Source of the DNA: Clostridia bacterium
GTDB lineage: Bacteria; Bacillota; Clostridia; UMGS1883
Length of the DNA stretch: 64,000 nt
Direction of reading: 5' to 3'
NCBI GenBank assembly: GCA_051866635.1
Contig: JBJDXJ010000052.1
Coordinates: 14,744 to 78,743 of the forward strand
Made by a program: the position numbers and the translations under genes
Notes under the pieces: model-generated
Database searches by the model: none
What the model saw: only the letters and a program-made list of their open reading frames with translations
Told to the model about the DNA's origin: nothing
Shown here: in pieces, positions 5,960-32,228 of the stretch
Layout: every line of letters starts with the position of its first letter
Position numbering within the stretch: the stretch's first letter is position 1

Positions 5960-7387
5960 ATGGATTTTCAAATGACAATTGAAAATGTGCAAAAAATGCT
6001 TGACAAAAAGATTTTCTCCTGTGAGGAATTGGTTAAGCTTGTACTTAACAATATTTCATACTTAGCTTGTGCCACAGGTGCTTATATTACAGTTTGCCGT
6101 GAAAGTGCCATAAACGAGGCAAAACGGATTGATAAAGAGGGGCGAAATTATCCTCTTTCCGGGATACCTATTGCCGTGAAAGACAATATTTGCACAAAGG
6201 ATGTAATGACAACTGCCGGAAGTCAAATATTGAAAGGCTTTGTTCCCCCGTATGATGCTACCGTGGTGGAAAAATTAAAAATGCAAGGTGCAATCATTAT
6301 CGGAAAAACCAATATGGATGAATTCGGTATGGGTTCAACAGGTGAAAACAGTGCATATAAATCCACAGCAAACCCTGTTGATTATACATATGTTTCAGGC
6401 GGTTCCTCAAGCGGTAGTGCTGTGGCAGTAAAAAGCGGTCAGGCAATAGCAGCTTTGGGCAGTGACACAGGCGGCAGTATTCGACAACCTGCCTCCTTTT
6501 GCAATCTTTATGGGCTAAAGCCCACATATTCCCGTGTTTCAAGATACGGGCTTATTGCTTTTAGTTCAAGTCTTGACACCATCGGTCCAATCTGTCAAAG
6601 TGTAAAAGACTGTGCTGTTATGTTAAATGCCATTGCTGGGGCTGATAAAAGGGACATGACCTCATCGAAAAAAGAGGTTCCAGATTATACAAAAGCTCTT
6701 TCAATCGGGGTAAAAGGAATTAAAATAGGAGTTATAAAAGAGTTTTTTGAAAACATTGATGAAGATGTAAAAGAAGCCGTAAAAAAGGCAATTGATGACT
6801 ATAAATACCTTGGTGCGGAACTGGAAGAATGTTCTGCTGGTTCGTTAAAATATGCTTTGGGTGCATATTACATTTTATCTTCCGCCGAGGCGTCAAGCAA
6901 TCTTCAGCGGTATGACGGCGTGAGATTTGGAACACGGTCAAAAGAATACAATTCATTGGAAGAAATGTACGTAAAGAGCCGCAGTGAGGGCTTTGGTGAT
7001 GAAGTGAAGCGTAGAATTATGATAGGAACATTTGTGCTTACGGGGGATTATTATAACCTTTATTATAGAAAAGCCTTAGAGGCTGTGAAAATAATCAAGG
7101 CTGAATTTAATAAGCTTTTTGAAAAATTTGATGTTATAATAGCACCTTCAAGCCCTGTAAGAGTGCCAAAAAGGGGCGAAATTCGTGAGGCGTATGAGGA
7201 ATATAATTTAGACAAGTCTACAGTGGCGGTAAACTTAGCATCACTTCCGGCAATAAGTGTGCCCTGTGGCACAGATAAAAACAATATGCCTGTGGGTTTT
7301 CAGATTATTGGAAAGCCCTTTGATGAAGAAGGTATATTGAAAGTGGCATATAATTACGAAAAGCGTGGTGATTATATTGGAGCTTGA
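5960..7387 (+). CDS. gatA: Asp-tRNA(Asn)/Glu-tRNA(Gln) amidotransferase subunit A (amidase)
   Basis: Amidase signature GGSSSGSAVAV, GKTNMDEFGMGS and GSDTGGSIRQPA. Confidence 0.9.
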   Translation: MDFQMTIENVQKMLDKKIFSCEELVKLVLNNISYLACATGAYITVCRESAINEAKRIDKEGRNYPLSGIPIAVKDNICTKDVMTTAGSQILKGFVPPYDATVVEKLKMQGAIIIGKTNMDEFGMGSTGENSAYKSTANPVDYTYVSGGSSSGSAVAVKSGQAIAALGSDTGGSIRQPASFCNLYGLKPTYSRVSRYGLIAFSSSLDTIGPICQSVKDCAVMLNAIAGADKRDMTSSKKEVPDYTKALSIGVKGIKIGVIKEFFENIDEDVKEAVKKAIDDYKYLGAELEECSAGSLKYALGAYYILSSAEASSNLQRYDGVRFGTRSKEYNSLEEMYVKSRSEGFGDEVKRRIMIGTFVLTGDYYNLYYRKALEAVKIIKAEFNKLFEKFDVIIAPSSPVRVPKRGEIREAYEEYNLDKSTVAVNLASLPAISVPCGTDKNNMPVGFQIIGKPFDEEGILKVAYNYEKRGDYIGA

Positions 7388-9379: not shown

Positions 9380-12300
9380 ATGAACAAATTATTCAAATCA
9401 GTAGTATCTTTGGTAACTGCTGCAACTATGAGCCTTTCTGTCGCGGCTTCAATGGCGGTTACTGCAGGTGCTGCAGAAGACAAGGGTGCAATTATGCCTA
9501 CTTACGAAAGCACAATTGCAGCTGTTGAAAAAGCTAACGATTATTACCAGTCAACGGTAGCTTATAACAAGCAGGAATATGGTATTCCAAACTGTTTCTG
9601 GGCAAAGGCTGCTTACGAAACAGGTAATATGGAAGCATATTACACAACAGGTATCGAAGCATATCGTGACTATGCTACAGCTTGGGCTATGGACTGTAAT
9701 TGGCAGGGTCATGGCTCTACAAATAAGTCTGCTTGGACATGGGGCTACAGCCAGACAATGAGTGGTAATGCAGCACTCTTCGGTGACTTCCAGATTTGTT
9801 TCCAGACTTATATTGATCTTTACAACATTGAAAAGAACGAATCAAAGGGTGCAGTTGTTGACAACTCAAAGATTGCAAGAGCAATCGAAGTAATGAGCGA
9901 AGAAATCTCCAGAAGCAATGACGATTTCTGGTGGTGGGCAGACTCTCTTTACATGGTTATGCCTGTTATGACAAAGCTCTACAAGGTTACCCAGGACGAA
10001 AAATACCTTGACGGTCTTTATAGATTCTGGAAGTATGCTAAGGAACTTATGTATGATGGTCCCGGCGGTATTCCTTCTGATGCGACAGGTTATACAACAT
10101 CAGCTAAGCTTACCAACGGTGCAAAATATTCAGATCCTGACAATTATGCGTACCTCTTCTTCCGTGATGCAGGTTATGTATATCCCTTAAAGCCTAACCC
10201 CGGTCATGAAAATGAAAAGAACTTCTGGGCACGTGGTGACGGTTGGGTATTTGCAGGTTTGGCAAAGGTACTCCAGGATATGCCTGATGATTACGAACAC
10301 TATAACGACTTCCTTCAGACATACCTTGAAATGGCTCCCGCTATCAAGGCTTGTATGAGAGTGGACGAAAATGGTTACGGTTTCTGGACACAGTCAATGC
10401 TCCAGGGTTATCCCACTTCCGCTTCTAACCCCAACGGTTATGAAACAAGTGGTACAGCATTCTTTACATACGGTTTCGCTTGGGGTATTAACTCCGGCGT
10501 ACTCGACAGAGATGAATACCTTGAAACAGCAGTTCGTGCTTGGAACTACCTTGCAAACATTGCTCTTCAGCCTGATGGTATGGTTGGTTATACACAGTAT
10601 ATCGGTTCTAACGCTGTTGAAGCTATGGGCCCCAGAAACAATCAGAACTTCGGTACAGGTGCTTACCTCCTTGCAGGTTGTGAAATGTCCCGTCTTGTTG
10701 GCGGTAGCCAGGGAGATATCTATCCCCAGCTCCAGAGAAAGATGGAAACATACATTGCATTCCGTGTAAACACACCTCACTACTATACAGGTGGTAAGAT
10801 TGGTCATATTGAAGAAACAGACCACAAGGTTGAAGTTTACCTTAAGGTAGATGACAACGGCAACAGAACAAGCATGATTCCTGCTCGTCTTATCGTTGAA
10901 ACATTCGGCGGCAACGTAGCATGGAATGAAGCTGCAAGAACAGTTACAGCTACGATCGGCGACAGAACAGTTGTATTTACTGTAGGCAGCAATGTTATCA
11001 CAGTTAACGGTGAAGCTATGACAGCTCCCACAGCTACTGAAATTGTAGGTGGCAGAACATTCGTTCCTCTCCGTGCACTTGCTGAATCTCTCGGCAAGAA
11101 GGTTTACTGGAGCCAGGGCGATTCTCCCGAAAACGGTCTTATCGTTATCGGTCATAAGGCAACACCTTTCTATTCTTGCGATACAAATCTTGTAGAAATG
11201 CTTAGAAATATGCTCGGCAAGCCCGAAACATATCCTACAAGACCTGCACAGAAGGTTAAGGATTTCGCTCCTAAGATTACTCCTGTTTCCGCAACTGCAA
11301 GAGGTACAAAGATTAACCTTACATCAGTTACATATTCTCAGGAACCTGAAGCTAATAACCCCGGCAGACACGTAATCGATAACACAACAGGTACTTACTG
11401 GGCTTCTAACGGTTCAGCAACAGCTGTTGTAGATCTTGGCTCAAACAAACCTGTAAGCAGTGTTGGTGTATTGTTCCGTGTTTATGATGACGACAGAACA
11501 ATTCCATTCTCTATTTATGTTTCCAACGATAATTCAAAATGGGAACTTGTGGGTGCTTCTGTTTCCGTAGCACGTTCCAATAAGCCTATTTACATGGATG
11601 CTAACAAGAGTGCAAGATATGTAAAGTTCCAGTTCGATGGTAACTCCATTTCAGGTTGGAACAGCGTTGATGCTATAGAAGTTTACGAAGGCGATGCTTC
11701 TTCCGTATCCGAAATAAAGAACGATACAACAACTAATACTGCAAATACAACTACAACTAACAAGGCTACAGGTACAAAGATTAATGTTTCAGCTTCTTCT
11801 GTAACATTCAGTCAGGAACCCGAAGCTAAAAACCCCGGCAAAAACGCATTCGATGGCAATGCAGCTACAGTATGGGCTTCTCAGAACGCTGCTAATGCAG
11901 TTATCGACCTTGGTAAGTCCACTCCTGTAAGCAGTGCAGGTGTTAAGTTCATGGTTTACGGAGACGACAGAACAATTCCTTTCTCTGTTGCAGTATCTGA
12001 TGACAAGGCAACATGGACGACTGTTTACACAGGTTCTTCCGTACCTTACGGTGCTGACTTCATTTATGTAACAGTTGGCAAGAATGCAAGATACGTTAAG
12101 TTTACGTTTGAAGGTAACACAGTATCAGGTTGGTCTTCTGTTGCAGAAATGGAAGTTTACACAGGTGATGTTACAGCGGCTGATACAGAAACAACTACTA
12201 CAACAGCAAATACTGTTGAAGGTAAGGTTGTAAACGCTGCTACAGGTTCAAAGGTTACACTTACAGCTAATATGCTTAAGGCTTCTGCTACTCCTGAAGC

Positions 12301-28559: not shown

Positions 28560-28588
28560 TTGACAAATTATCTCTTTTGTAGTAGAAT
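28560..28588 (+). promoter_or_regulatory. sigma-A promoter TTGACA-N17-TAGAAT upstream of yceD-rpmF
   Basis: Consensus -35 plus a near-consensus -10. Confidence 0.6.
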
Positions 28589-28629
28589 TGAACTCGCTGA
28601 AAATGCCCATAGGTGGCAGAGGTGATAAC

Positions 28630-29136
28630 ATGAAAATAAATATTGCAAGTGTCATCAACTGTGACGGCGCAAAGCTTGATATTGAAAAGGAGTTCCCCAT
28701 AGGCTCTTTTGAGTTTGCAGGGAATGAGTATTCCTTTGAAAAACCTGTGAAAGTTACAGGTGAAATCAGAAATATCGGCAGTGCGTTGAGGATTATCCTC
28801 AATGTTTGGGGTGAGTACACGGCTTTTTGTGATCGTTGCGGCTGTGATGTAACAAAATCTGTTGCTAGTGCAACAGAGGAGGACATTACAGAAGGCAATG
28901 ATGATTTTGACGAAGAGATGTTTTCAATCGTAGGACATACGTTAGATATTTCCGGTGCGGTTGAATCTTTAGTGTACAGTAGTCTTCCTATGCGTAATCT
29001 GTGCAGTGACGATTGTAAGGGTTTATGCCCTAAATGCGGTACAGATTTAAACAAATCAGAATGTAATTGCGATACGACAAGGTATGACCCTCGTTTCGCT
29101 ATTTTCAGAAAATTAGCAGGAAATGGTGAGGTGTGA
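28630..29136 (+). CDS. yceD: YceD/DUF177 family protein (23S rRNA accumulation protein)
   Basis: Conserved position immediately upstream of rpmF. C-terminal CDRC...CPKCG...CNC metal-binding motif. Start set to the ATG at 28630 with a gaggtga RBS. The ORF-track start lies inside the promoter -10. Confidence 0.75.
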   Translation: MKINIASVINCDGAKLDIEKEFPIGSFEFAGNEYSFEKPVKVTGEIRNIGSALRIILNVWGEYTAFCDRCGCDVTKSVASATEEDITEGNDDFDEEMFSIVGHTLDISGAVESLVYSSLPMRNLCSDDCKGLCPKCGTDLNKSECNCDTTRYDPRFAIFRKLAGNGEV

Positions 29137-29139
29137 AAA

Positions 29140-29319
29140 ATGGCAGTTCCTAAGCACAGAACTTCTAAAATGAAGAAGCGTCAGAGAAGAGCAAACTGGA
29201 AGCTTCTTATTCCCGGCATGGTAAAGTGCTCTCATTGCGGCGAGTATACAAAGCCCCACATGGTATGTAAGGCTTGCGGTTACTATGACGGTAAGGAAAT
29301 CGTAAAGGTAGAAGCGTAA
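29140..29319 (+). CDS. rpmF: 50S ribosomal protein L32 (59 aa)
   Basis: Absent from the ORF track (<60 aa). Translation [59 protein letters not shown]. Confidence 0.9.
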
Positions 29320-29384: not shown

Positions 29385-29461
29385 TGTCGATATAGCTCAG
29401 CAGGATAGAGCGACCGCCTCCTAAGCGGTAGGTCGGAGGTTCGAATCCTCTTATCGACGCC
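29385..29461 (+). tRNA. tRNA-Arg (anticodon CCU)
   Basis: Cloverleaf folded by hand: acceptor GTCGATA/TATCGAC, D-stem GCTC/GAGC, anticodon stem ACCGC/GCGGT with loop CTCCTAA, T-stem GGAGG/CCTCT with TTCGAAT loop, encoded CCA. Confidence 0.85.
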
Positions 29462-29462
29462 A

Positions 29463-29494
29463 GAAAAAACGACTTGTTTCGACAAGTCGTTTTT
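29463..29494. terminator. terminator hairpin after the tRNA
   Basis: aaaaaacgacttgt-ttcg-acaagtcgtttttt. Confidence 0.75.
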
Positions 29495-29499
29495 TCATC

Positions 29500-29700
29500 G
29501 ATATAAATTCCTGAAGGAATTTGCTATATATACTTCATATGCGATATATCTTCGATTCGATATGTTGCCTTATGGCAACGAGTAGAGGAATTTATATCAT
29601 ATCGCAACAAAGCGAAGTGGAGTTATATCGAATTTGCGAAGCAAATATATTGCACGAGCGAGAGCGAGTATATCGCTAATTAAATTAGATATCTCTATGG
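29500..29700. repeat. cluster of short inverted/direct repeats with ATATCG / GCGAAG cores
   Basis: aaattcctgaaggaattt palindrome. Also gcgatatatcttcgattcgatatg, ttgccttatggcaa, atatcgcaacaaagcgaag, atatcgaatttgcgaagca and gcgagagcgagtatatcgc. Confidence 0.5.
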
Positions 29701-29797
29701 TTTTGTTTTGTATTATTTATTAAGAAAGGATTTTTGTAATGAATAGTAAATTTTTTCAATTTAACGTTTTCAAGGTGGGATATTTCACTAAAACATA

Positions 29798-29826
29798 TTG
29801 CAAACTACGTTATAGTGTGGTATAAT
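29798..29826 (+). promoter_or_regulatory. promoter TTGCAA-N17-TGgTATAAT (extended -10)
   Basis: Near-consensus hexamers ~150 nt upstream of the GNAT start codon. Confidence 0.55.
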
Positions 29827-29974
29827 TTAGCACGAAAGTCATCGGAGGACAGTACACCGTAGTGTAGGGGAGCAAATTCAGTTTGCGGCCGCCTGTCGGA
29901 TAAGATGTCGAGTGAGCTCGGTTATTACTTTTAGTAACAGCCGGGTATTTTTATTTTTTAGGGGGATTTATTAT

Positions 29975-30514
29975 ATGAAAAACACAAAGGTTGCTCTTAT
30001 GCCGCTGACGGCGGACGACCGTGAACAGTTCATTCTTGACAACCAGGAAGCATTTAGGTTCGGAGCACTTGAGGAGTTTGGCAAACGTGATGACCATTTG
30101 GATCTTGATGGGGAAATTATTTCTCGAAAAACTATTGAGGAGAGTATTGACTCCGAGGATGCTGAAACATATCGCATTATGCTTGACGGCGAAAAGGTTG
30201 GCGGTGTGATCCTTAAAATTGATAACAAAACACATCACAACCATCTTGATATTCTCTTTGTTTCCCCAAAGGTACACAGCAAAGGTATAGGCTACAAAGC
30301 ATGGCAGGCGGTAGAAGAGATGCACCCTGAAACCAAAATTTGGGAGACCTGTACACCTTATTTTGAAAAACGGAATATACATTTTTATGTGAACAAGTTA
30401 GGCTTTCATATTGTGGAATTTTTCTGTGAATATAATACTGACAATAACTGCCCGGAAGAAAAGCCCTCAGACGGACCTGATGAAATGTTTAGATTTATAA
30501 AAGTAATGAAGTAG
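29975..30514 (+). CDS. GNAT-family N-acetyltransferase
   Basis: Acetyl-CoA-binding segment ILFVSPKVHSKGIGYKAWQAV. Start set to the ATG at 29975 with an aggggga RBS. The ORF-track GTG start at 29912 would read through a terminator-like hairpin. Confidence 0.7.
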   Translation: MKNTKVALMPLTADDREQFILDNQEAFRFGALEEFGKRDDHLDLDGEIISRKTIEESIDSEDAETYRIMLDGEKVGGVILKIDNKTHHNHLDILFVSPKVHSKGIGYKAWQAVEEMHPETKIWETCTPYFEKRNIHFYVNKLGFHIVEFFCEYNTDNNCPEEKPSDGPDEMFRFIKVMK

Positions 30515-30600
30515 GCAGAATTGAGCCTGACTGTATGCGGTCAAATATACGCTTTTTCATTTCCTCCTTGGTTAGATCCTTCCGGTCGAGAGAGCCAACA
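30506..30600. pseudogene. ~90-bp duplicated fragment of the pdaA-like gene (copy of 30893-30990, ~92% identity)
   Basis: attgagcctgactgtatgcggtcaaa[t/a]atacgctttttcatttcctcct... is present twice. The fragment supplies the GNAT TAG stop. The annotated 30495-30773 minus-strand ORF is an artefact spanning it. Confidence 0.7.
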
Positions 30601-30735
30601 TTCGACACAAAAGTCTTTACAGTGTTTACATAAGTCACGAAGTTTTTGAAATTCGCGAAATAGCTGACATTCAGCTTGATGAAAATGGTATAAAATGAAA
30701 GATGTTCATCAGTCAGCAAAGTTGATAGCTTCTCC

Positions 30736-31494
30736 TCAAGGGGAAGCCTTGTACTGCCGCCCTGTATGGTCAATTGAGTAGTTTTCTTTGTAAATTAAAT
30801 CAGAAACACGTACAAATTCATACCCTTCATCTTTAAGAGATTGAAGTATTCCCGGAAGGGCAGAAGCAGTCTGCTTTGTACCGTTATGGAAAAGTAGGAT
30901 TGAGCCTGACTGTATGCGGTCAAAAATACGCTTTTTCATTTCCTCCTCTGTTAAATCCTTCCAGTCGAGAGAGTCAACATCCCATTGTATGCAAAAACGC
31001 CCTGTTTCTTTTGCGGCTAAAATTGAATTATTTGTATAATCCCCTGATGGTGCACGCATTATATTCGGGCGAAAACCTAAAACAGATTCAATTACGCTGT
31101 CGCATTTATCCATGTCTGATATAATTTCATCCTTTGAAAGTGTAGAATACAGTGTATGATTATAGCTGTGCGAGCCTATTTCGTGACCGTTTGAATGAAG
31201 TTTTTTTAAGGCTTCGGGGAAACGTTCTGCCCAATCACCTGTTACAAAGAAGGTGGCAGGACAGCTGTATGCACACAGTACATTTATAATTTGGTCAATG
31301 TCGTCATCATTCCATGCACTGTCAAAGGTGACGGCTATTTTTTTATCCTGTCTTTCTACAGAGTAGATAGGCAGTTCCTTGCTTTTTACACTTGTTTCAA
31401 CACTTTTGAACAGCTTTGGTACACAGGCAGATGATACCAGAATGGCGGCTAAAAGAAGAAAAATAGTGTGTTTTGTAATTACAAAGATTTTCAT
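30736..31494 (-). CDS. pdaA: polysaccharide deacetylase (NodB domain; PdaA-like N-acetylmuramic acid deacetylase)
   Basis: N-terminal signal/TM. NodB motifs TFDSAWNDD and HSYNH. Immediately downstream of cwlD. Confidence 0.7.
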   Translation of the reverse strand: MKIFVITKHTIFLLLAAILVSSACVPKLFKSVETSVKSKELPIYSVERQDKKIAVTFDSAWNDDDIDQIINVLCAYSCPATFFVTGDWAERFPEALKKLHSNGHEIGSHSYNHTLYSTLSKDEIISDMDKCDSVIESVLGFRPNIMRAPSGDYTNNSILAAKETGRFCIQWDVDSLDWKDLTEEEMKKRIFDRIQSGSILLFHNGTKQTASALPGILQSLKDEGYEFVRVSDLIYKENYSIDHTGRQYKASP

Positions 31495-32228
31495 GATTGC
31501 CCCTCACTTTTTGCACTGTCAATTTTTTCAAAGTCTTCAATATTTTTATAATATGCCACTATCCCGTCACATATTGCACTTGCAATCCGTGATTGATAAA
31601 TGTCATCGCATAAAAGTTTTTCTTCCTCGGCATTTGAAAGAAATCCGCATTCTACAATAATGGCAGGAATTGTTGAGTTTTTCATAAGATAGAGAGAATT
31701 ATCAGCCTTTTTGATTTGCCGTGATTGGTTTTGTGGGTCTATGGAAGTCATTTCATCCATTATTAACTGTGCTAAAAGTGTGGACTGAATAAATTTATCA
31801 GAATACAGAACTTCCGCACCACGGTACTTTGACTGGTGAAACTTATTTATATGTATGCTTATAAACATATCTGCCTGCGTGTTTTTCATTATAGAAAGCC
31901 TTTTTTCCATGTCGGCTTTTTTCTTTTTATCAAGACCGTCTTCGCCCTCACGTGTCATAATTACCTTGTAGCCACGCTCTGTAAGCTCTTGTTCAAGTTT
32001 TTTTGAAATACTTAAATTAAGACTGCTTTCAACTGTTCCCGATTTACTGACTGCACCGCCATCAGGCGTGCCGTGCCCGGGATCGATAATTATACATTTG
32101 TAGTTTTCATGATTAAAACTCATGGCAGGTACATCACTGTGCATAAAAGACATTGCAATAATAAGAATAATCAGTCCTATACCTAAAAAAAGTATTCCAC
32201 GTCGAATAACTAATATCAAAATTTCCAC
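31491..32228 (-). CDS. cwlD: N-acetylmuramoyl-L-alanine amidase, germination-specific CwlD type
   Basis: Amidase_3 motifs IIDPGHG and DMFISIHIN. ~240 aa with an N-terminal TM helix. Paired with the pda gene. Confidence 0.75.
   Translation of the reverse strand: MEILILVIRRGILFLGIGLIILIIAMSFMHSDVPAMSFNHENYKCIIIDPGHGTPDGGAVSKSGTVESSLNLSISKKLEQELTERGYKVIMTREGEDGLDKKKKADMEKRLSIMKNTQADMFISIHINKFHQSKYRGAEVLYSDKFIQSTLLAQLIMDEMTSIDPQNQSRQIKKADNSLYLMKNSTIPAIIVECGFLSNAEEEKLLCDDIYQSRIASAICDGIVAYYKNIEDFEKIDSAKSEGQS

Follow-up and report, generated by a model that had tools for sequence, protein, structure and literature searches.

A truncated copy of a deacetylase gene tail, a recurrent cassette layout and a conserved GNAT leader RNA near tRNA-Arg(CCU) in a Clostridia bacterium

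We analyzed a 64,000-nucleotide stretch of contig JBJDXJ010000052.1 from a Clostridia bacterium (GenBank assembly GCA_051866635.1), called the window below, and in particular the 1.27 kb that separate a tRNA-Arg(CCU) gene from the stop codon of a minus-strand gene for a PdaB-like polysaccharide deacetylase and that contain a gene for a GNAT acetyltransferase. In this DNA, relics form a patchwork at the meeting point of two variable regions. The explanation that best covers the whole, and which we consider probable though far from certain, combines this relic patchwork with a layout recurring in related genomes, in which the tail of the deacetylase gene is duplicated, perhaps through homologous integration, and with an independent GNAT unit that is headed by a likely ON riboswitch.

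Relics between the GNAT gene and the deacetylase gene

The first-pass annotation of the window had described a segment of ~90 bp next to the GNAT gene as a ~92% identical direct copy of an internal segment of the neighboring deacetylase (pda) gene, and the alignment confirmed this. Copy A (30517-30601) and copy B (30896-30980) form an ungapped direct repeat of 85 nt with 78/85 identical positions (92%, blastn E=1.8e-28), and no second repeat of such kind exists anywhere in the 64-kb window. Copy B encodes residues 172-200 of the deacetylase, while the minus-strand reading of copy A is NVGSLDRKDLTKEEMKKRIFDRIQSGSIL. The copies differ in eight codons, five times synonymously and three times by a replacement. 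Since two of the three replacements in copy A (D174G and W178R) fall in the otherwise conserved VDSLDW motif, copy A is a decaying pseudogene piece. We conclude that the deacetylase-gene tail has a second, truncated and decaying copy in this 85-nt segment. Its earlier interpretation as a recombination scar is supported, and this scar, as it stands in the window, is ordinary decay.

A pair of ~90% identical copies, of which one lies within a coding region, is also what a diversity-generating retroelement with its template and variable repeats, or some other programmed variation of the deacetylase, would leave. However, the mismatches are not adenine-specific (T/C, A/G, G/A, A/C, T/A), no open reading frame (ORF) of the size of a reverse transcriptase is present among those listed for 27.5-33.5 kb, and the segment codes for that part of the enzyme which is most conserved; we give this origin a negligible probability.

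The intact gene had been labeled 'pdaA-like'. Its product belongs to the polysaccharide deacetylases (Pfam Polysacc_deac_1, E=5e-32), and among the NCBIfam models it scores 218.7 bits against PdaB (TIGR02764, cut-off 237.4) versus 125 bits against PdaA (TIGR02884, cut-off 298). The label therefore has to be changed: PdaB is the best family, although its own cut-off is not reached either, and by these profile scores the neighboring gene probably encodes a PdaB-like sporulation deacetylase.

Starting from the stop codon of the deacetylase gene, the window contains, in this order, a short post-stop block, a piece of a cargo gene, the end of a promoter module, the tail copy and the join to the GNAT unit. 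Of the cargo gene, ~95 nt from its middle are retained, and of the promoter module ~20 nt; the tail copy, from 30601 to 30517, still has 85 nt and is cut after codon 200. The cargo relic (30722-30624) matches residues ~345-381 of a 495-aa surface protein with Listeria-Bacteroides repeats that is encoded 3' of the deacetylase gene in the related locus L004 (blastn: 86% over 58 nt; tblastn: 65% over 37 aa, E=1e-7), and it contains a stop codon. The minus-strand ORF 30495-30773, which had been suspected to be an artefact of the duplication, is indeed a chimera without a Pfam hit, composed of the out-of-frame pda tail, the antisense cargo relic, the in-frame fragment and the antisense GNAT end. 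The post-stop block of ~30 nt (GGAGAAGCTATCAGCTTTGCTGACTGATG) is present at 30707-30735 (-) in the window, at 8760-8790 in L004 and at 2451-2480 in L006. Together with a C-terminus ending in KASP directly before the stop codon, it is common to the three fragment-bearing loci of this genus, while the fragments, and the loci without a fragment, end otherwise (KTDN, QFAN, QFAK or QFSN).

The first-pass annotation had further claimed that the copy begins at the TAG stop codon of the GNAT gene, so that the 3' end of this gene would be built from pda sequence. This claim fails. The closest GNAT homologue (L082, 93% amino acid identity) lies in a different context and is followed by an unrelated AAA/shikimate-kinase-like gene; nevertheless, ATGAAnTAGGCAGnA is common to both. 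The 3' end reads ...ATGAAATAG GCAGGAGCTTTTTAGCCCCTGCC in L082, i.e. TAG GCAGGAGCTTTTTAGCCCCTGCC, and ...ATGAAGTAG GCAGAA/TTGAGCC in the window, where TAG stands ahead of GCAGAA and the slash marks the join; the stop codon and the next 5-6 nt (TAGGCAGnA) are thus common to the two. In addition, ~40 further GNAT homologues from other contexts end at the same position or a few residues from it, most of them with MK before the stop. Because L082 shares the stop codon and the bases that follow, and because these homologues end alike, the TAG is the GNAT gene's own. From these comparisons, we assign the TAG and the first 5-6 nt of the terminator hairpin to the GNAT lineage, and the pda-derived DNA begins at ~30520. 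The 7-mer AAGTAGG, on which the claim had been founded, is present at both copies but 4 nt out of register, and the match is a coincidence or at most a nearby microhomology.

The junction between the GNAT unit and the fragment at ~30519/30520 removes the GNAT terminator hairpin and keeps the stop codon, and the microhomology at the join is not longer than ~4 nt (AGGA/AGAA). An illegitimate join at this point fused the tail copy to the 3' end of the GNAT unit. We looked upstream of the GNAT gene, on the other side of the unit, for codons 201 to the end, which the fragment lacks, and found none of them. It follows that the GNAT gene is not a simple insertion into the fragment, and this negative search also leaves the proposed GNAT-insertion origin of the duplication unsupported. 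A deletion or rearrangement has one of its ends at the join.

Recurrent duplication of the deacetylase-gene tail

We fetched 80 loci with relatives of the deacetylase, seven of them from the window's genus (74-78% amino acid identity) and the rest at 42-51% identity, mostly from metagenome-assembled genomes (MAGs) of Acutalibacteraceae and Oscillospiraceae. In 16 of the 80 loci, the same strand carried a second copy of the gene's own tail at a distance of 0.7-5 kb downstream from the intact gene; of the 55 loci whose downstream flank is 3 kb or longer, 15 had such a copy. Fifteen of these tail copies (L004, L006, L020, L021, L027, L033, L038, L039, L041, L047, L048, L053, L068, L072 and L076) are 77-100% identical to the resident copy at the amino acid level; the sixteenth locus is L049. 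The tail copy spans the region from the WDVDSLDW motif to the stop codon. Its left boundary is identical in all 16 loci and in the window: the homology starts at (A)TGTTGAC of the WDVDSLDW codons. The non-coding DNA before this boundary is always alike and ends in ...CATTATACCATATTAATGCAAAATGCACAAGCCnTTATTAAAATATTACTTTTGTATCTAAT, and the invariant junction with the tail copy reads ACTTTTGTATCTAAT/GTTGAC. On the right, the duplicated block ends anywhere between stop-29 and stop+211.

The DNA that adjoins the tail copy is a module of ~75 nt, the other strand of which contains a good promoter (TTGTGC, 17 nt, TGGTATAAT) that points away from the fragment and into the cargo in between. With the exception of a weak match in L074, this promoter module was found at these junctions only. 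The full layout is an intact gene, a variable gene or a small number of such genes on the opposite strand, the promoter module and the second tail copy. The cargo differs between genomes, is almost always on the opposite strand and encodes mostly surface, lipo- or membrane proteins: lipoproteins, zinc-ribbon membrane proteins, Listeria-Bacteroides-repeat proteins and proteins with a copper-amine-oxidase N-terminal domain, and also a HATPase/DUF4325 protein. Inserts of 0.7-1.6 kb hold a single cargo gene. In L033 (8001-11960), the elements form an array of gene, cassette 1, tail copy, cassette 2 and short tail copy. The two L033 cassettes, with a zinc-ribbon membrane protein and a lipoprotein, have the same promoter module each and are separated by repeats of the tail and of a ~200-nt non-coding element (see below); the last repeat is internally deleted. 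An integron cassette array was considered and rejected for such arrangements, since no tyrosine recombinase signature was present and the cassettes carry their own promoter (no search was aimed at attC-like folding).

Within the window's genus, L003 has an empty site with nadA directly after the deacetylase gene; L006 contains one cassette, whose fragment adjoins nadA, and the other loci of the genus contain 2-6 kb of different cargo. The gene order proposed earlier for a synteny comparison (rpmF-tRNA-Arg ... cwlD-pda) is not found in the relatives, where the deacetylase gene is followed by the variable region and then by nadA-nifU-nifS-cysK. A mirror version of the duplication was found in L029 and L075, where codons 1 to ~62 are repeated ~1.2 kb upstream of the intact gene (copies at 6737-6934 and 6528-6725, respectively; intact genes from 8001) with a junction common to both (AAAAAGGTACAAAATAATATATGRTAAAGCCTGTATA). 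The insert of L075 is a barnase/barstar-like toxin-immunity pair on the opposite strand.

The first-pass annotation had explained the window by insertion of the GNAT cassette, or deletion of a pda paralogue, at a tRNA-Arg hotspot, with the pda copy supplying the stop codon. It is true that the repeat abuts the GNAT gene, that AAGTAGG occurs at both places and that the DNA after the tRNA varies in relatives, one of which has a resolvase gene there. The same tail duplication, with the same boundary and the same promoter module, is however present in 16 related genomes without a GNAT gene at the locus, and none of the 80 loci contains a full second paralogue next to the gene. Together with the stop codon shared with GNAT homologues elsewhere, the lack of a fragment remainder upstream of the GNAT gene and the lack of a tRNA-fragment repeat, these results make the proposed scenario very improbable.

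Resident and fragment copies within a genome are 71-95% identical at the DNA level, and we counted 280 synonymous versus 39 replacement differences between them. For neutral drift since an in-place duplication, we estimate that ~40-60% of the differences should be replacements. In L041, 25 nucleotide differences over the 70 codons compared cause no amino acid change (27 mismatches over the full 237-nt block). Since the differences are overwhelmingly synonymous, both copies diverged as functional coding sequence, which implies that one of them came from another related genome not long ago.

These features can be accommodated by a Campbell-type homologous integration, without a recombinase, of cassettes that carry a terminal piece of the gene; we prefer this mechanism tentatively, rating its chance slightly below even. 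Circular or linear cassette DNA with a terminal gene piece would integrate by RecA-type homologous recombination, either in a Campbell-type single crossover or in a double crossover with the tail copy as the right-hand arm. Either route would leave the gene intact and add one terminal fragment, and each transfer would re-mix the fragment with a functional allele. Recombination between the flanking repeats would excise the cassette as a transferable circle in which the same junction is restored, and transfer by double crossover would account for the unchanged inheritance of the junction while the fragment is repeatedly refreshed. Indeed, a gene with a 3' fragment, or a 5' fragment with a gene as in L029 and L075, are the products predicted by single-crossover integration. 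Campbell-type insertion-duplication is familiar as a laboratory tool (suicide plasmids) and from the integration of plasmids and translocatable units. Like it, the mechanism proposed here predicts both observed layouts as well as tandem arrays and needs no dedicated recombinase. We know of no description of a natural, recurrent, gene-specific cassette family that spreads by Campbell-type insertion.

The main competitor is site-specific integration at the WDVDSLDW core by a recombinase encoded elsewhere, with displacement of the native tail, in which case the small cassettes would be non-autonomous or decayed. This is how e14 and phage 21 use icd of Escherichia coli: the target gene is kept intact by an alternative 3' end, and the native 3' end is left beyond the insert. 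Here too, the target gene is intact, the other 3' end lies as a fragment beyond the insert and the copies differ mostly synonymously, which is the classic signature of such an event. Furthermore, the junction is invariant in 17 genomes across genera, and in the window's genus the three occupied loci share the KASP tail and the post-stop block while the fragments carry other tails. On the other hand, other genera mix the tail types between resident and fragment positions. A search by motif regular expression, which is a weak test, was negative for signatures of tyrosine and serine recombinases, both in the 80 loci (where available, with 8 kb on either side) and in the 64-kb window, and the cargo ORFs contain no recombinase domains. 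In contrast to e14 and phage 21, no integrase was found in or near the inserts, which comprise 0.7-5 kb with one to few cargo genes, down to the single-gene inserts mentioned above; a promoter module and not an att arm abuts the fragment, the right boundary is variable and a mirror version at the 5' end exists. We regard integration of the e14/phage 21 type as unlikely, yet as an alternative to be taken seriously.

Several points weigh against homologous integration. No excised circle and no within-species pair of empty and occupied sites was present among the loci, and homologous recombination over 240 bp at 71-95% identity is inefficient. The invariant junction is equally expected from a site-specific recombinase acting in trans, and the recombinase test was a motif regular expression only. 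Synonymous sites are saturated between species, and the native copy is not distinguishable: compared with the 5' part of the gene, the identities of the resident tail or the fragment are saturated at ~78% with negative correlations, and at the 3' end, similarity among the three occupied loci of the window's genus is not elevated. As for the invariant left junction, taken as a crossover core under site-specific integration, it could equally be inherited by descent, with the right end variable.

A further step would be to regard the cassettes as a recombinase-free mobile family that uses a promoter and a terminal piece of a sporulation gene as its own homology arm, which we consider a bold and rather doubtful proposal. 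If true, such cassettes could enter by RecA into any genome that has the gene, whatever lies downstream and without ever inactivating the gene, and through transfer after transfer the 'pseudogene' arm would retain the look of a functional coding sequence. In any case, variable genes, among them those for surface proteins and toxin/immunity functions, come to lie beside a sporulation gene at this site, with no visible recombinase. Should the site be driven by homologous recombination through a self-carried fragment, this would be a simple and overlooked route by which accessory genes spread among related bacteria, and some pseudogenes annotated as 'gene fragments' would be explained as well.

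The GNAT unit and its leader RNA

The GNAT gene (29975-30514) encodes a protein with the Acetyltransf_1 domain (PF00583, E=5e-10). Of 8,000 candidates scored, 7,989 were homologues, mostly 72-79% identical; the family is very abundant in gut and rumen metagenomes and occurs in many different gene contexts. An AlphaFold2 model (pLDDT 84) has the standard GNAT fold, and the best matches of this model in a Foldseek search of the PDB were polyamine and small-amine acetyltransferases at 13-18% identity. The protein has no match in NCBIfam and no sequence match in the PDB, and the fold matches are generic, so that no substrate can be called. We also ran the check, suggested earlier, of whether the closest homologues sit on mobile elements: the best plasmid hits reached no more than 59% identity and two viral contigs 59%, which is not evidence of mobility.

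The promoter and structured leader that had been noticed before the GNAT gene were confirmed. The promoter is sigma-70-like (TTGCAA-17-TGnTATAAT, 29798-29826); other GNAT loci have a different -10 box at the same distance to the leader. In an alignment of 31 non-redundant leader sequences, 97.5% of the cells were paired and 11 of the 21 base pairs showed compensatory changes; none of 500 shuffles reached this value, and slid controls gave 25-39% pairing. RNAalifold agreed on P1, P2 and the terminator. Three leader architectures could be distinguished, which have in common P1 (CAYC/GRUG), an internal loop (GGAG / RGAUWA), P2, P3 with a CGUA loop and P5 (CGAG-UGMG-CUCG), the 3' strand of which doubles as the 5' strand of a Rho-independent terminator; an extra hairpin is optional. 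In the window, the 3' strand of P5 (29917-20) lies inside the 5' strand of the terminator (29916-28), which makes P5 and the terminator mutually exclusive. P5 itself covaries from CGAG/CUCG to CCAAG/CUUGG.

A covariance model built for the leader (R1) detected it directly upstream of the gene in 80 of the 84 loci with GNAT homologues (L082-L165), in some of them 5'-truncated, and also matched the window and L025 (5379-5480). It found no leader elsewhere in 1.08 Mb of other loci. We conclude that the GNAT unit is an independent module, whose ORF is preceded by a local promoter and by a structured, terminator-containing leader specific to the family. The leader, a candidate riboswitch, would most likely act as an ON riboswitch: folding of an aptamer that includes P5 would sequester the 5' strand of the terminator, and the acetyltransferase would be made when the ligand is present. 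The predicted ligand would probably be an amine-like compound that induces the acetyltransferase. Two points stand against parts of this interpretation. The leader loci were collected through the GNAT gene, and the exclusivity to GNAT is in part a matter of ascertainment; furthermore, binding of a protein or another factor in place of a small molecule is a candidate explanation of the switch.

In 12 loci (L100, L105, L115, L129, L137, L143, L145, L149, L152, L153, L157 and L159), the 5' half of the leader (P1-P3) upstream of the GNAT gene is replaced by unrelated sequence, so that of the leader only GGAUUAGGUGUC, P5 and the terminator are left; the replacements include two or three distinct sequences that recur. 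These leaders may reflect rearrangement breakpoints inside the leader or a different regulatory solution.

The closest known parallel is the Gd4v (guanidine-IV, mepA) riboswitch family, in which some members act on GNAT genes (PMC9788692). Like these, the leader described here would control a GNAT gene of gut Firmicutes by means of a Rho-independent terminator and would probably be switched on by a small amine-like compound. The structure of the L. curiae GNAT (8osp) from the same work is among the fold matches of the window GNAT (TM 0.70, 14% identity). Unlike Gd4v, the window leader has another sequence and the architecture P1-internal loop GGAG/GGAUWA-P2-P3(CGUA)-P5. A Gd4v/guanidine-IV identity was rejected, as the invariant CCGGAGG is absent from all Gd4v alignments in the supplement of that paper (PMC9788692). 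In Rfam 15, neither the window leader (E<=10) nor six other leaders (E<=5-10) had a match, including to any guanidine-IV/mepA model, and literature searches on leader strings and GNAT-associated motifs returned nothing relevant. The leader can be described as an uncatalogued cis-regulatory RNA dedicated to a GNAT family very abundant in gut Clostridia, so that its ligand and the substrate of the enzyme could be sought together.

The tRNA flank, assembly support and features of the window

On the left side of the region, L166 and L167 (YceD 80-82% identical) share with the window the genes for a radical-SAM protein, trkH, trkA, yceD and rpmF and an identical tRNA-Arg. The tRNA aligns without a mismatch, and all three sequences diverge right after its 3' end: the hairpin that follows the tRNA in the window differs in sequence from those of L166 and L167, and a heparinase-like gene comes next in L166. 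A gene for a resolvase-family serine recombinase lies in L167 (8442-9116, -) ~600 bp downstream of the identical tRNA-Arg(CCU), which suggests that mobile DNA uses this tRNA flank in the genus. The 25-nt 3' end of the tRNA occurs once in the 64 kb, even with three mismatches allowed, so that no partial tRNA repeat exists. Between the tRNA and the pda gene, the GNAT gene is the sole ORF with a Pfam match, the others being short or overlapping. The idea of a tRNA hotspot thus holds insofar as the DNA after tRNA-Arg is variable in relatives, but with neither a tRNA repeat nor an integrase or recombinase signature the region is not a classical tRNA-targeted island. With tRNA islands and tycheposon-like arrays it has in common a variable islet beside a tRNA and, in the relatives, cargo arrays separated by partial-gene repeats; unlike in these, the repeated partial gene is that of the deacetylase, and there is no tRNA repeat and no tyrosine recombinase.

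The repeat-rich spacer noted earlier after the tRNA is present; it is one copy of a conserved element of ~200 nt whose normal place is behind the pdaB stop codon. It contains CGATATA three times in its 5' half, TATATCG three to four times in its 3' half and small hairpins (fold z=-3.06). Homologues lie directly after the deacetylase stop in L033 (8758-8943), L011 (1016-1126), L020 (2407-2515) and L051 (from 1844) and ~150 nt after it in L049 (1883-1945); in L033, a second copy (10421-10612) follows the stop of the duplicated fragment. One copy stands in another context (L084, 11118-11215, -). The element has no match in Rfam and no other copy in the window. Being usually located between the deacetylase stop and a terminator, it looks like an element of the 3' untranslated region. 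In the window it is inverted relative to the deacetylase gene and placed after the tRNA-Arg terminator, which suggests that the spacer belongs to the deacetylase-side hotspot and not to the tRNA. In the lineage of the window, a larger rearrangement would have brought the two variable regions together; a misjoin by the assembler is less likely.

Such a misjoin of rpmF-tRNA-Arg to the GNAT/pda region, or a false duplication of pda, has to be considered since the window comes from a MAG and no relative has tRNA-Arg adjacent to GNAT and pda. Logan contigs from the same sample end at 29422 (inside the tRNA), at 29842 (at the start of the leader) and at 30756 (20 nt into the deacetylase tail). These breaks speak for a chimera; they are also consistent with DNA common to several genomes, or with strain variation, exactly at the module boundaries. 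The independent Logan contig L001 (915 bp, run SRR30616850) is 100% identical to 29842-30756. Hence, the DNA from the junction of GNAT and fragment through to the deacetylase stop is not the artefact of one assembler. In addition, the fragment duplications recur in MAGs from many studies and assemblers. What this leaves to be held against our interpretation is that 29422-29842 (3' half of the tRNA, terminator, spacer and promoter) is backed by the window assembly alone, and with it the adjacency of tRNA-Arg to the GNAT/pda side. Only this link is without independent support, and we consider a chimera improbable.

The features of the region are compiled in Table 1. The window has the gene order trkH, trkA, yceD (in its 168-aa form), rpmF (29140-29319), tRNA-Arg(CCU), repeat-rich DNA, promoter, leader and GNAT. 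The minus-strand deacetylase gene and cwlD (31491-32228) converge on the plus-strand GNAT gene, and an SSB-like gene and ruvX lie beyond.

Table 1 Features between tRNA-Arg(CCU) and the deacetylase gene in the window
Feature	Position	Strand	Basis
tRNA-Arg(CCU)	29386-29462	+	ARAGORN; Rfam tRNA 70 bits
Terminator hairpin after the tRNA (15-bp perfect stem, then T run)	29463-29496	+	Repeat search
Repeat-rich spacer, conserved ~200-nt non-coding element	29498-29700	+	Homology to DNA after the deacetylase stop
Promoter of the GNAT unit (TTGCAA, 17 nt, TG-TATAAT)	29798-29826	+	Promoter scan 10/12, extended -10
Conserved GNAT leader RNA	29837-29959	+	31-sequence alignment, covariation
Leader P1	29840-43/29904-07		
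Leader P2	29848-52/29893-97		
Leader P3, loop CGUA	29853-57/29862-66		
Leader variable hairpin	29872-86		
Leader P5, loop UGAG	29909-12/29917-20		
Leader terminator	29916-29946, then U run to 29959		
GNAT N-acetyltransferase, 179 aa, native TAG stop at 30512-30514	29975-30514	+	Pfam PF00583; C-termini of homologues
Stub of the GNAT terminator hairpin (GCAGAA) and illegitimate junction	30515-30520	+	Comparison with L082
Relic of the deacetylase-gene tail, residues 172-200, truncated on the 3' side	30517-30601	-	Repeat and translation
Relic of the junction-proximal end of the promoter module (AAAGACTTTTGTGTCGA/ATGTTGG)	30602-30622	-	Motif search, alignments
Internal pseudogene piece of the cargo gene	30624-30722	+	blastn/tblastn against the L004 surface protein
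Conserved ~30-nt post-stop block (GGAGAAGCTATCAnCTTTGCTGACTGATG)	30707-30735	-	Common to L004 and L006
Intact sporulation polysaccharide deacetylase, PdaB-like, with repeat copy at 30896-30980	30736-31494	-	Pfam, NCBIfam

A 19-nt AT-rich repeat (29363-81 and 29702-20) was judged to be due to chance. Look-ups of exact proteins gave no record for the window deacetylase and the long YceD ORF, and for the GNAT protein the 915-bp contig only. The longest YceD ORF (28588-29136) starts with TTG and encodes 182 aa; its database homologues, one of them 100% identical, have 168 aa, and the true YceD start is probably at 28630.

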